A stretch of 64,000 nucleotides of DNA from an uncultured delta proteobacterium (lineage in GTDB: Bacteria > Desulfobacterota > Desulfobacteria > Desulfobacterales > JAFDCJ01): NCBI GenBank assembly GCA_963769935.1, contig CAVYNY010000010.1, forward strand, positions 128,001 through 192,000, in the 5' to 3' direction. Of the stretch, positions 939-5,276 are shown one piece after another (the first letter of the stretch is position 1; each line of letters opens with the position of its first letter). The notes beneath the pieces were generated by a model. That model searched no databases. It was not told the DNA's origin and worked only from the letters and a program-made list of their open reading frames with translations. The position numbers and the translations under genes are program-made.

Positions 939-2165
939 TTATTTCAGCATATTGATTCTACCGGCAGGTTTCAATCTTAAAGCGCCGGCGTAGCGGTCAA
1001 GCGCCGTTCGCACAGCTTCACGGTCGTTGGCGTTCGCCTTGCCTTTCACGTTCGCTTCTTCGAACAGGGCTGAAAGCACGTTGAGCTTTAAGGCTCTCCA
1101 ATCGGCTTTGAGATCGACTCGCGCCACAAGCCTGTCTCCGGCAAGCACCGGCAGACAGTAATAGCCATATTTGCGCTGGGACGCGGGTTTGAAAATCTCC
1201 AGAACCTGATCAAAGCCGAACAATTGCCGGACACGCCGGCGATCCCAGAGCACCGGGTCAAAGGGCGAAAGCAGAACCCCCTGGTCGCTGCGCGGCCGCA
1301 CGCGCTTTAGACGTGCTGCCAGCCCGAGGTCATTGGGCCGGATCCAGCCGGGACTTTTCTTTTGGTCTTCACTGGATAGGGCACATGGTACGATCTCGCC
1401 TTTTTCAACAAGGCGGTTCAGGGCGACCGCGATGCTCTTTTTTTGGTTGGTAAGCCGCCACGTTTGAGCAAGGGTGCCGGTCGAAGCCCAACCATGTCCC
1501 CTCAGTGCCTGAATGAACAGTTGCTCGATGGCTTGCGGTTCGGGCATTTTGTTTTGCCGCCAATGCTCGGGAACGACACGTTCGGTCAGGTCATAGATTC
1601 GTTGAAAATTTCGCCGCTCACGAATGGCAAGCTCGCCCGAGGACCATAGCGCGGTTGCCACCCGTTTGACCAGTTTCAAATCCCACCAGCCGCGACTTCC
1701 CTCGCCTTCCATATCGAGAGAGCGAAGGGGTCCTTCGCCCCGAATACGTTGACGCAGGCTTTCTGCGATTTTCGGGTGTTGCCCGATGAGATCCCCCCAC
1801 CAGGGATGGCGGCAAAATGCCTTGCGGCGAAATTCGAAGACCGGATAAAGCTCGATCGGAAGCCAGCTGGCTTCGTGCCCCCAGTACTCGAATAGCGGCT
1901 CCCGCGGTCGCAGCAGGCCCTCGGCCAGCTCATGATCGAAGCCTTCCAGGCGTGAAAGTAGCACGATGGCATGGCTGCGGGCGCCGGCGATCGAGACGGT
2001 GTCGAGTTGCAGGTAGCCGAAACGCCGGATAATTTTGTGGGCGGCCTGGCGGGCCCGACACGTACGACCGGTCGCGCGTTTGGGAAGACCGGTCCACTCC
2101 GGTTTGAGAAGTCCGGCCCGGGCCAGCGCCAGCCTCCGAGCTTCGGCAATTGTTATGGTTTCCAT
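939..2165 (-). CDS. YcaQ/AlkZ-family (HTH_42) winged-helix DNA glycosylase-like protein
   Basis: QLD (QxD) motif, FEYWGHEAS, LLSPFDPVLWDR, RKYGYY motifs; likely start METITIAEARR at 2165. Confidence 0.85.
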   Translation of the reverse strand: METITIAEARRLALARAGLLKPEWTGLPKRATGRTCRARQAAHKIIRRFGYLQLDTVSIAGARSHAIVLLSRLEGFDHELAEGLLRPREPLFEYWGHEASWLPIELYPVFEFRRKAFCRHPWWGDLIGQHPKIAESLRQRIRGEGPLRSLDMEGEGSRGWWDLKLVKRVATALWSSGELAIRERRNFQRIYDLTERVVPEHWRQNKMPEPQAIEQLFIQALRGHGWASTGTLAQTWRLTNQKKSIAVALNRLVEKGEIVPCALSSEDQKKSPGWIRPNDLGLAARLKRVRPRSDQGVLLSPFDPVLWDRRRVRQLFGFDQVLEIFKPASQRKYGYYCLPVLAGDRLVARVDLKADWRALKLNVLSALFEEANVKGKANANDREAVRTALDRYAGALRLKPAGRINMLK

Positions 2166-2364
2166 GAAAAAAAAGTAGCAGAAAAACACTGAATGATAAA
2201 GTGCTTATCGCAAATAATGCCGCGGCCAAAATAATATCCGGCTGCAACCTGGGCCCGCGGGTTCTAAAATCAATCAGCCGTGGTTCAAATTTTCGCTTGA
2301 CAGTGGGATGGTGAAATGTGCTTTATAGTCCAATATCACCTAATGGAAGGAGGAGCGGACGGCA

Positions 2365-3003
2365 ATGGTCGATTTAAAAGACAGGGTGGATTTTTACTGG
2401 GACCCGGTTTGACCCTGGTGTTGGATAACATCCAGGTGGATGATAGATGTCGGGCGACAAAAGGAGATTCAGGTAAATTGGAAATTTTTCAGCCTCAAGC
2501 TGATCAATAAAGACCGGGATGGTCGGGAAGACCATAAAATACTGCATGAAGTCGGATTAAAAGCGCTGCGGGTAGCGGCAGCAGTCCGGCGCGAATTCGG
2601 CAATGACGGCGTCGAAAAAATCTATGCCGCCATGGGCGCATGTTATCATCACGATGGAGGGGATATCGATGAGCCTTCAGCCCTGGCGGAAATCCTGCAA
2701 TCCTGCGGCTTGCCGACCCGGCTGGCGATTGCTGCCGGCAATAAAGCACTGGATGAAGACATTCAGGCCGACATGGATCAGGCTATTGCCAAGGCCGGCA
2801 CCGATGTCGGCGTACCCCAGATCGTGCTCGACGGCGGCAAAGGGCCCGGTTTTTTTGGTCCGGTCATGAGCCCGGCGCCGACCGGCGAGGAGGCTGTGAA
2901 ATTCTGGGATGCCATCATGACGGCCGGCAGTCTGCCCGGGTTTTTCGAATTAAAGCGGACACGGGAAGTCGGGCCGATTTTTGGCGAACGTCCCCAGGTT
3001 TGA
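2365..3003 (+). CDS. DsbA/thioredoxin-fold oxidoreductase (Rv2466c-like), probable selenoprotein with UGA at 2410-2412 (motif U-P-W-C)
   Basis: AGGAGG SD then ATG 2365; MVDLKDRVDFYWDPV-TGA-PWCWITSRW continues in frame into track ORF 2440..3003 (VGVP, FFGPV, FFELKRTR). Confidence 0.85.
2426..2445 (+). promoter_or_regulatory. Candidate bacterial SECIS hairpin
   Basis: CATCC-AGGT-GGATG stem-loop at 2429-2442, extendable by two pairs past one mismatch; AGGU loop starts 22 nt after the UGA. Confidence 0.6.
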
Positions 3004-3006
3004 AGA

Positions 3007-4638
3007 TTAGAAATCCTTGAAGTCATCCTCCAGTGGTATGATTTGCTCAGGATTCGTCTGGTTCGTTTTGTCGGACCTTTGATTTAGCACCGGCCGCTCA
3101 AGGTTCAGGCCTTTATGCCTGAGGTTCCCTGCGGGGCGGGATGCTGCCGGAGCGGAGCGCGTGTGCGCACCGCTTCTTGAAAAGTTATGGCCGCTTCCGC
3201 CCACCAGGGTCACCAGATCATCAACAAAGGTTTTCATCTGCTGGGCCTGGGTATTCATTTCCTCGGAAGCGGAAGCCGACTCCTCGGCATTGGCAGCATT
3301 TTGCTGGGTCAATTTGTCCATTTCGGTTACCGCATTGTTGACCTGCTCGATCCCCTGTGCCTGCTCATTGGAGGCCGCCGAAATTTCAGCCACCAGTTGG
3401 CCGACCTTGGTTGATCGTTCGGCCACCTCTTGGAAGGCCTCATTTGTTCCCGTGACCAAATCGGAGCCGTCATTGACCTTTTTGATGGTGCCTTCAATCA
3501 GGGCCGCCGTATTCTTGGCAGCATCGGCCGCCCGCATGGCAAGATTTCTGACTTCATCCGCCACGACGGCAAACCCGGCACCGGCCTCGCCGGCCCGAGC
3601 CGCCTCGACAGCTGCATTTAAAGCCAGCAAGTTGGTCTGAAAGGCAATCTCATCAATGGTTTTGATAATTTTAGACGTCTCTTCGCTGGCTTTTGAAATA
3701 TCTCCCATGGCCTCGGTCAGCTGCGCCATGGATGAATTGGCGCTAACGACGACCTGATTGGCTTCCTGCATGAGATTGTCGGCCTGACCGGAATTTTCGG
3801 CATTTTGTCGGGTCATGGAGGCCATCTCTTCCAAGGATGAGGAAGTCTCTTCCAGGGAAGCCGCCTGCTCGGATGAACCTTCAGCCAGCGATTGGCTGGC
3901 CTGAGCAACCTGCTCGGAGGCAGAGGCTACCTGCTCCGACCCTTCGGTAAGTCCCGCTATAACCGCTTTCAAAGGCCGGGTAATTCCCCGTCCAAGACCC
4001 CACATCAGAAACATTCCAGCCATAAGGCCGATTCCGGTAATTGAGAACATAGTCATCAGGGACATCCGGTAGGTGTCATCGGCCTCGGCATGCGCTTTTT
4101 CGGCATTATCGAGATTAATGTTCGTTAACTGGTCCAGATAATTGCGCATTTCTTCGAATTTTTCCCTGGCCTGGCCCAGGCTCAGATCCAGGGCCTCCCG
4201 CCGCCCTTCTCTCGTATCGGCAACCCTGCCTGCCACAACCTTTTTCGAAATGGCCTTCCAGGCTTCCCTGGCCTGATCGTATTTGGGAATCAAGACCCTT
4301 TCTTCTTGCGCAGTCGCAAGGGCCTTGTATTTGTCCCAGCGCTGCTGGGACTGCTCCAGATTTTCCTCATAGTCCTTGACCAGCTGCTTGAATTCTTCCG
4401 AGCTGGCATTGGCAAAAATCATGGAGCGTTCGGCCACCAGCAATTGCTGCAGGTCACGATCGACTTGAAGGATATAATTGATGCTGGGCAGCCGCATTGC
4501 AAAAATTTCATTTAAATTTTGCTTGATATTCGCAGTGCTCCGGTAGCCGGTAAATCCGATAATGCCCACCAACAGGATCATGATGGAAAATCCGAAGATC
4601 AGTTTAGTTCCGATGGCAAGGTTTCTGAACCATTTCAT
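3007..4638 (-). CDS. Methyl-accepting chemotaxis protein with four-helix-bundle sensor domain
   Basis: Two TM segments flanking a helical periplasmic domain; [34 protein letters not shown] signature. Confidence 0.95.
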
Positions 4639-4715
4639 TGTTTAGCGGCCTCCTGTAGACGGTTTTTTTGCAAGTAACTGTGGCAGCCGGCGACACCCGG
4701 CTCCCACTAATGAAC

Positions 4716-5276
4716 CTATTCGATCTTGTCGACATCAATGCCGAATGTAATGGCGCCGATAACCGTATCCCCGTCTTTGACCGGGACCGACACCTGCACC
4801 AGATAGGCCTGGGTGCTGTCATCAAATTTTACCGCATCGACAAATACGGCCCCGCTGCCGCCGTTAAAGGACTTTTGGAACTTGGCTTCATCGCCCTGCC
4901 AGTAGTCGGAGGTCTTATCGGTCATGGCCACATTGGCGCCCTGGTTGTCCATGACAAATATTTCAGCATAATACTTGGCCGACTTTTGGATGCCCGCAAG
5001 GTGCTGGCCGCAATCAGAATCCATCAGGGCTTTCATGTAGTCGGCAATTCCGGCCGTGGCCATCCACTCTTTGTCCTTGGCCTTGATCTGGTCCAACGTC
5101 TTGCCCTTGGCGTTTTCTTCTTTTACCGCTTTGACGATTGCGGGATCAGTACCCACTTTGGCAAGTGTACCATTGGCAAGGTCATAAACTTTCTGGGGCG
5201 CCTTCTCGGCCAAGGCAACGCCGGCGCTCACCACCAGAAACATTCCCACAACGGTTAGTGTCAGTGCTTTTTTCAT
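4716..5276 (-). CDS. Stand-alone periplasmic Cache/PDC sensor-domain protein
   Basis: Signal peptide ending ALA; EIFVMDNQGANVAM...TSDYWQGDEAKF...VSVPVKDGDTVIGAITFG PDC-like pattern; no second TM segment. Confidence 0.75.
   Translation of the reverse strand: MKKALTLTVVGMFLVVSAGVALAEKAPQKVYDLANGTLAKVGTDPAIVKAVKEENAKGKTLDQIKAKDKEWMATAGIADYMKALMDSDCGQHLAGIQKSAKYYAEIFVMDNQGANVAMTDKTSDYWQGDEAKFQKSFNGGSGAVFVDAVKFDDSTQAYLVQVSVPVKDGDTVIGAITFGIDVDKIE

Follow-up and report, generated by a model that had tools for sequence, protein, structure and literature searches.

A predicted selenocysteine form of an Rv2466c-like redox protein in an uncultured deltaproteobacterium, and its possible link to a mycothiol-like gene cluster

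The window analysed here, by which we mean the whole stretch of 64,000 nucleotides, raises a question near its left end. Gene finders mechanically call an open reading frame of 187 amino acids at 2440..3003 on the + strand, with no CxxC motif, as the preliminary description of this DNA had stated. The same frame holds an upstream ATG at 2365, from which translation would have to pass an in-frame TGA at 2410-2412. Is this TGA read as selenocysteine (Sec), and if so, which redox enzyme results and what recharges it? The gene at 2365-3003 is very likely a real but mis-annotated selenoprotein gene, cut short in databases. Its product would be a cytoplasmic mycoredoxin-2-like selenoprotein reductase, recharged by a mycothiol-like small thiol from an MshA-like gene cluster; to this reading as a whole, which is drawn from sequence, we give a probability of roughly 0.47.

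The gene comprises 212 codons on the + strand (2365..3003), starting with the ATG at 2365, passing the TGA within DFYWDPV-TGA-PWCWITSRW and ending at a second TGA (3001-3003). A Shine-Dalgarno-like sequence, AAGGAGGAG (2347..2355, + strand), lies 9 nt ahead of the ATG, and a similar purine run is found upstream of the gene in most relatives. The sequence thus agrees with the ribosome-binding site, start and read-through frame proposed earlier. The read-through protein of 212 amino acids, with Sec predicted at residue 16, matches the PF22234 profile over its entire length (positions 1-180 of 180) with 164 bits against a cut-off of 27, matches four mycobacterial PDB sequences (E 2e-43 to 3e-40), and aligns end-to-end with Rv2466c, the UGA falling on Cys19 of the latter. 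Full-length homologues with Cys at this position are mostly 212 aa as well. No signal peptide is evident in the 212-aa protein, and no NCBIfam model matched it at E 0.1. The C-P-W/F-C active site of the mycoredoxin-2 class is present as U-P-W-C (2410..2421, + strand), with Sec replacing the first Cys and Cys19 of the present protein as the predicted resolving residue, by homology to the Cys19/Cys22 pair described in the available text on Rv2466c. A G-V-P loop (G149-V150-P151; 2809..2817, + strand) aligns with the thioredoxin-fold cis-proline position, and we take P151 to be the cis-proline. G149 and P151 are invariant across 106 sequences, whereas the residue preceding the proline is Val here and Thr (G-T-P) in Rv2466c and in the actinobacterial Sec forms L208-L211.

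A structure was modelled for P0003, a Cys homologue with 84% identity, from an alignment of 106 sequences (pLDDT 97); a single-sequence model reached a pLDDT of only 39. The top 10 Foldseek matches of the P0003 model in the PDB are Rv2466c and its Mycobacterium leprae homologue. The comparison with Rv2466c/mycoredoxin-2 (PDB 4NXI, 4ZIL, 5XUR; the 'DsbA-Mrx1 cluster') points to a shared fold, with TM scores of 0.76-0.82 for the model, and is joined by a common DPx[C/U]PWCWITSRW motif, the full-length alignment and the lack of a signal peptide. What sets the present protein apart is the predicted Sec in place of Cys19, a host in which MshC was not found, and a deltaproteobacterial lineage from sediment and soil.

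One argument for selenocysteine is that the in-frame UGA (2410..2412, + strand), aligned with the nucleophilic Cys19 of Rv2466c, alternates with Cys among relatives; the preliminary description had suggested a check for such alternation. A total of 151 loci were parsed: besides the window, 45 came from genomes, 25 from two genome surveys and 80 from metagenomes, the last being the best of 124. The motif search fitted 120 of them, giving 99 distinct sequences, from which five distant Cys forms were set aside. Most of the 31 dropped loci were CPxA forms from actinobacteria and fragments; one fragment (L095) also has TGA. The remaining 94 distinct Desulfobacterales-type sequences have TGA in 58 cases and a Cys codon in 36. 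These 58 UGA sequences are up to about 30% apart, and their reading frame stays open past the UGA. Sec and Cys orthologues are up to 84% identical, and their hosts mostly keep the Sec machinery. Within the genus, the gene occurs in 12 of 23 genomes, with TGA in 11 of the 12 carriers; it was found in 19 of 401 genomes of an order sample and in 8 of 401 of a phylum sample, and the relatives with informative record titles are Desulfobacterales.

Environmental sequence from elsewhere bears on the same codon. Two contigs of run X7, from another study, span 2410-2412 and have 9 and 12 differing letters elsewhere, with no listed difference at the UGA or at 2431-2442. Since they keep the UGA while differing at other sites, the UGA is not a sequencing error. 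Run X1, which may be the source sample, matches 2150-2500 exactly, and runs X3 and X6 gave no match. A 34-base piece in X2/X9 matches 2409-2442 and continues into unlike sequence, and was left out of the evidence; the RNA runs X9 and X10 hold only pieces of relatives, as contigs. The preliminary description had named a lack of UGA-bearing relatives, or reads with TGT or TGC, among the findings that would refute the Sec reading; what was found instead are the 58 UGA sequences and the unchanged X7 contigs. A nonsense mutation or an error at this UGA, or its reading as Cys or Trp, in a gene that is dead or starts at 2440, is therefore highly improbable, since the split selA gene of the assembly and the unremarkable regional folding energy (both described below) are outweighed by one UGA column with an open frame behind it, by the contigs of the other study and by the use of UGA as the terminal stop of the same gene.

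Downstream of the UGA lies a predicted SECIS hairpin, CATCC-AGGU-GGAUG (2429..2442, + strand), identified by its conservation, whose loop (2434-2437) starts at +22 from the UGA, as proposed in the preliminary description, and has its G at +23. The ATG of the called frame at 2440 lies inside the 3' arm of this hairpin. The overlapping, competing hairpin that had also been pointed out is present as a putative structure at 2414..2436 (+ strand) and, in this genome, is the more stable of the two (-10.1 vs -5.9 kcal/mol). Folding energy was rejected as evidence for a SECIS element, being not above that of shuffled sequences: four longer stretches gave z values of -0.42 to +0.09, and two short ones -1.69 and -1.92, with 12 and 10 of 200 shuffles, respectively, doing as well, neither hairpin being singled out. 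By contrast, conservation at the codon level exceeds what is expected by chance. The letters TCC-AGG-TGG-ATG are kept in 58 of 58 UGA forms and in 1 of 36 Cys forms. Ser-Arg at codons +7/+8 after the UGA is written TCC AGG in all 58, whereas elsewhere in those genes TCC accounts for 35 of 381 Ser codons and AGG for 45 of 521 Arg codons (about 9%); of the 36 Cys forms, three have TCC and one has AGG. The three core pairs are possible in 58/58 UGA forms vs 3/36 Cys forms, with mean pair probabilities of 0.68 and 0.09, respectively, and core pairs together with the AGGU loop in 58/58 vs 1/36. No compensatory changes in the stem were seen among 16 sequences.

The competing hairpin can form 6-8 of its 8 pairs in all 58 UGA forms, with a mean pair probability of 0.20. 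A decoding ribosome would cover its 5' arm, which lies within 10 nt of the UGA, and for this reason the structure is given no role here, though it may have one. The AGGU loop is presumably comparable to that of E. coli fdhF. The hairpin at 2429-2442 fits the bacterial SECIS feature of a stem-loop just downstream of the UGA with a G in a small apical loop, as described in the available text of PMC1088965.

Cys forms nested within the UGA group retain the hairpin letters to varying degrees. Of six such forms, L109 keeps TCC AGG, L008 and L135 keep only TCC, and L005, L010 and L146 keep neither, which looks like decay of the hairpin after reversion to Cys. A test of independent pairs for the association between codon and hairpin counted 5 changes and 1 independent pair on well-supported branches, a number with which a sign test cannot reach significance. 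L109 and L229 (genome G1113) are Cys forms with exactly the hairpin letters of their UGA sisters, and are probable recent reversions.

The host genome (G000), which is 96.7% complete, encodes the machinery needed for Sec incorporation. All four genes for which a check had been suggested are present: tRNA-Sec (selC), selB, selD in two copies, and selA, the last split over two frames (G000:C22:678143-679238). Two EF-Tu-like genes (C22:721234-722131 and 736650-737823) and a CysRS-like gene (C11:372871-374056) are broken in the same way, so that the split of selA is probably an assembly error, with indels as its likely cause. Both selD genes themselves have an in-frame UGA (G000:C20:157619 and C7:116160). 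Among carriers of the redox gene, selB was found in 8 of 10 genomes with the UGA form (not found in the other 2) and in 13 of 15 with the Cys form; given the latter figure, loss of the Sec system does not account for the Cys forms. All four DSBA-domain genes of the host carry one TGA. The other three have the UGA at the first Cys, in C8 (L063, UPWC, FrnE type), C11 (L064, UGYC) and C17 (L065, UPYC). A tRNA-Pyl (CUA) gene (G000:C11:285724-285797) accompanies tRNA-Sec, and both extra amino acids may be in use; related deltaproteobacteria have been described as using both. Sec alternating with Cys, the codon-level SECIS signature and the Sec machinery together back the proposal that Sec takes the place of the first Cys of CPWC in an Rv2466c-type protein, and Sec is almost certainly inserted at UGA 2410-2412, as far as genomic sequence can tell.

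Selenocysteine has a longer history in this family. All trees discussed here are quick trees. With the Sec column masked, the 58 UGA forms fall into one group of 64 rows (support 86), together with the six nested Cys forms. A wider survey covered 401 genomes in the phylum of an Acidimicrobium record, 110 of which have PF22234. Among the matches listed, at least five in at least four actinobacterial genomes have TGA at the same column, within the motifs UPFC (twice), UPWC, UPWA and UPFA; six further actinobacterial matches fall outside this listing, and genome G931 enters only this tally. All four actinobacterial Sec genomes have selA, and hairpins are found at the same distance from the UGA. 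Three of these carriers have both MshC-like and MshA-like genes. The preliminary description had seen the gene as a Sec version of a mycothiol-dependent family whose reductant in this organism was an open question. Its Rv2466c-type nature holds, while Sec does not merely stand in for mycothiol, given the actinobacterial carriers with MshC-like and MshA-like genes and the Desulfobacterales carriers with a mycothiol-like cluster.

In a 97-row tree, the actinobacterial Sec forms lie apart from the Desulfobacterales group, and L211 is nested among Cys forms. Joining the Desulfobacterales UGA group with L208-L210 is rejected by the AU test (p=2e-6, on a quick tree and with groups chosen after seeing it). 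The Desulfobacterales lineage thus probably gained selenocysteine separately, and repeated gain would be the simplest reading of the trees, though an ancient Sec followed by many losses may explain them too. On the same quick trees, a Cys-form gene would first have reached the Desulfobacterales, Sec would have been gained in one sub-lineage, and about four reversions to Cys would have followed, with decay of the hairpin afterwards. Several forms stand out as observations in their own right. L211 (G958; UPWA) and L212 (G849; UPFA) are single-residue Sec forms, and the two Sec paralogues of G958 lie on different branches. L042/L096 is a Cys copy in which an internal deletion joins about residue 30 to residue 147. 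A candidate selenocysteine in MshC, suggested by TGAs in the MshC-like matches of two actinobacterial genomes, was rejected, the TGAs lying upstream of the start codon.

This kind of selenoprotein has been in print since 2008, as sequence motifs indicate, and the Desulfobacterales lineage is new to it. The 'DsbA 2' family of the GOS survey (Zhang & Gladyshev, PMC2398784) comprises 18 sequences with UxxC in the available text, and the reads in its supplement 3 show DP.UPWCWVTARW, an FGPVIT motif and a WELK.TR tail, all of Rv2466c type; these reads being Sec-Rv2466c proteins, the kind counts as known since then. By motifs only, and as compared through L210, they belong to the same family and have the same Sec column as the protein described here. 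They match L210 by eye, and L210 is 39% identical to the present protein (E 4e-49). Unlike the latter, every one of the 18 is of UPWCWVT type, and UPWCWIT and YWDP occur 0 times in supplement 3. The Desulfobacterales UGA group and the L208-L210 group likewise differ in their hairpin letters at the same position.

A second known selenoprotein, the FrnE-type 'DsbA-like protein form 1' (PF01323, NIP15863.1), shares UxxC in a DsbA/thioredoxin fold and reads SDYIUPWCYL, like the C8 gene of the host. That gene has only 23% identity (E 4e-7) to the protein of 2365-3003, which is therefore not of the 'DsbA-like form 1/DsbA 1' type. The 'DsbA-like' representative of deep-Sep is of FrnE type too, and UPWCW does not occur in the four deep-Sep supplements. 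The available 119-entry table of a 2026 inventory (PMC13188914) does not name PF22234, and a term search of one supplement of PMC13326102, in its available form, gave no match. For the Olavius delta-1 symbiont, two DsbA-like selenoproteins were counted in the available text of Zhang & Gladyshev 2007 (PMC1976440); this symbiont has an 82%-identical UGA orthologue (L001) and four UGA-bearing DSBA-domain genes. The Desulfobacterales clade may already be listed in BSepDB or in the supplement of PMC1976440. Literature searches that paired Rv2466c with selenocysteine, or 'mycothiol-dependent nitroreductase' with selenoprotein, found nothing, the GOS family going by the name 'DsbA 2'. Mycothiol outside Actinobacteria has been treated for the Binatota, in the available part of that literature. 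Further literature, also in the parts available, comprised PMC9312934, PMC8318568, PMC11841060, PMC6178380, PMC13745706 and an Actinomarina preprint.

How might the protein work? SelB would deliver Sec-tRNA after binding the AGGU loop, 22 nt past the UGA. The Sec16 selenolate would then attack a mixed or intramolecular disulfide, to be resolved by Cys19 or by a small thiol; by analogy with Cys19/Cys22 of Rv2466c, this is probably how catalysis proceeds. The best guess for natural substrates is mixed disulfides of a mycothiol-like thiol on proteins after oxygen exposure. As to the recharging thiol, a cysteinyl-glucosamine glycoside is proposed, for which a cluster on contig C18 would supply MshA-like, PIG-L, Fem-type GNAT and MshD-like enzymes; the Fem-type enzyme would do the work of MshC, drawing its cysteine from charged tRNA. 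Judged by gene content and co-occurrence, recharge by such a thiol is plausible, if somewhat less than an even bet.

This cluster (G000:C18:85335-90866; L262:3336-8867) encodes a Fem-type GNAT, an MshD-like double GNAT, a PIG-L deacetylase, an MshA-like glycosyltransferase and a glyoxalase-II-like (MBL) hydrolase; the redox gene at 2365-3003 lies outside it. The NCBIfam models that it matches best are MshA, MshD and BshB1, and the Pfam FemAB_like score exceeds its cut-off. All Msh-like scores remain below curated cut-offs (MshA 288 vs 462, MshD 101 vs 163, MshB 49 vs 224), as does BshB1 (106 vs 182). A profile search of the 96.7% complete genome gave no match over cut-off for MshC, BshC, GshB, GshA or GCS2, the best MshC score being 158 against a cut-off of 485. 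Since the canonical mycothiol pathway (MshC) was not found in the host, the protein is filed as mycoredoxin-2-like rather than as mycoredoxin-2; with all Msh-like matches sub-threshold and no true MshC, the product of C18 may not be a thiol. Compared with the mycothiol pathway of Actinomycetota (Ino1, MshA, MshB, MshC, MshD, Mtr), C18 shares clustered MshA-like, PIG-L and MshD-like genes, and further shared features, namely Ino1, a HAD phosphatase and a mycoredoxin-like domain, are seen in the clusters of relatives; the differences are the scores below cut-off, the lack of MshC and a Fem-type GNAT beside the MshA-like gene in most loci.

Across 18 MshA-like loci of the genus, the cluster genes recur in shuffled order; 4 of the loci have Ino1, 5 have a HAD phosphatase and 3 have a mycoredoxin-like/TrxR fusion. 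The Fem-type GNAT adjoins the MshA-like gene in 13 of 13 further Desulfobacterota loci, whereas it is not beside it in the single locus from an actinobacterium, a genome that does have an MshC-like gene. The cluster of the host is eroded: it lacks the cluster-type Ino1 (the best Ino1 match of the genome, at 35%, lies in another context), the mycoredoxin-like/TrxR fusion and intact peptidase genes. An 80-aa CysRS-like piece in C18, considered as a CysRS paralogue that could be the missing ligase, was rejected, being the tail of a deleted peptidase-S51/CysS_C gene. In the clusters of relatives, a peptidase-S51-like protein with a CysRS anticodon-binding tail (L265:13231-14490) and a mycoredoxin-like (CPDC)/TrxR fusion (L265:15215-16453) are found. 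The occurrence of such a tail beside the Fem-type enzyme suggests a contact with tRNA-Cys. A GCS2-family match with one in-frame TGA was noted in another genome (G1218:C216:5-745).

What is added here is the co-occurrence of the Fem-type/MshA-like cluster with a mycothiol-type redoxin. In the order sample, an MshA-like gene was found in 18 of 19 PF22234 carriers, the exception being an 84% complete genome, against 66 of 382 non-carriers (84 of 401 overall); the search scored four candidates per genome, and kinship inflates any p-value. Counted by family, all 5 carrier families have it, compared with 24 of 89 overall. The distant family f34, which carries a separate branch of the gene, has the MshA-like gene in 7 of 7 genomes, with no negative control. 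The near-confinement of the redox gene to genomes with an MshA-like gene hints independently that a redox thiol is the product of the cluster. In a broader scenario, which can be put forward only tentatively, Desulfobacterota of sediments would produce a mycothiol-like thiol not yet described, with a Fem-type ligase fed by tRNA, and would use it with a dedicated selenoredoxin, Sec having been gained at least three times in the Rv2466c family (UxxA forms included) and lost repeatedly in Sec-making hosts.

Other ways of recharging the protein must be weighed. Thioredoxin and thioredoxin reductase, or another protein dithiol, could serve instead, the co-occurrence with MshA-like genes then reflecting shared gene import from the same donors. 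A TrxR over cut-off is present in the host, the local cluster is eroded as described, and the related NCgl2478 of C. glutamicum is regenerated by both mycothiol and thioredoxin pathways in the available text of PMC8280269. Thioredoxin is, however, near-universal (21 of 21 relatives match), which leaves the near-confinement of the gene to MshA-like genomes unexplained, and we regard this alternative as unlikely.

Still less probable is a selenoprotein that mainly reduces or conjugates small nitro or electrophilic molecules rather than protein disulfides. Rv2466c reduces nitro prodrugs, yet the substrates named for it, in the available literature, are synthetic drugs. Kappa GST and HCCA isomerase share the fold of the P0003 model, at lower Foldseek rank. 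The gene neighbourhood could also fit such a role. Divergent from the redox gene is an AlkZ-like member of the winged-helix glycosylase family (939..2165, - strand; PF06224, 185 bits by profile), and AlkZ-like neighbours occur, in either orientation, at 19 of the 99 loci, every one of them a UGA form; at 16 of the 99 the redox gene is followed by a DinB/MST-like gene, though not in the host, and the neighbours vary between sub-lineages.

Recharge by coenzyme A or cysteine, through a CoA-disulfide-reductase (CDR)-like flavoprotein, is marginally less probable again. It draws on three CDR-like genes in the host, one of them carrying UGA at its catalytic position (YSA-U-GIPY), and on a CDR-like match in 21 of 23 genomes of the genus; these host genes all score below the curated cut-off (best 492 vs 579), and none is co-located with the gene of 2365-3003 among the neighbour clusters listed. 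The UGA-bearing flavoprotein (G000:C28:50739-52046, L263) is of a known selenoprotein type, with TGA-bearing matches in most genomes of the genus.

The basic finding is a correction of annotation: 56 of the best 120 database proteins are classed as starting downstream of the redox motif, and so lack the active site. Natural Sec and Cys orthologues, at up to the identity given above, offer a direct test of what selenium contributes to a mycoredoxin-2-type enzyme, and the same pairs a test of the rate at which SECIS elements decay after reversion. Should recharge by a mycothiol-like thiol prove true, it would name the small thiol of a group in which glutathione, bacillithiol or canonical mycothiol genes were not found here, and would supply an enzyme for detecting it.

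Finally, some features of the locus are of minor note. A promoter scan returned 0 sites, and terminator-like sites numbered 3 vs 1.3 expected. Upstream of the gene, a perfect TTGACA (2297-2302) and a TATAGT (2324-2329) are separated by 21 nt, a pair that fails the promoter scan. Downstream, an ordinary methyl-accepting chemotaxis gene (3007-5276, - strand) runs convergently and ends 3 nt past the stop of the redox gene, and is itself preceded by a gene for a small Cache-domain protein.
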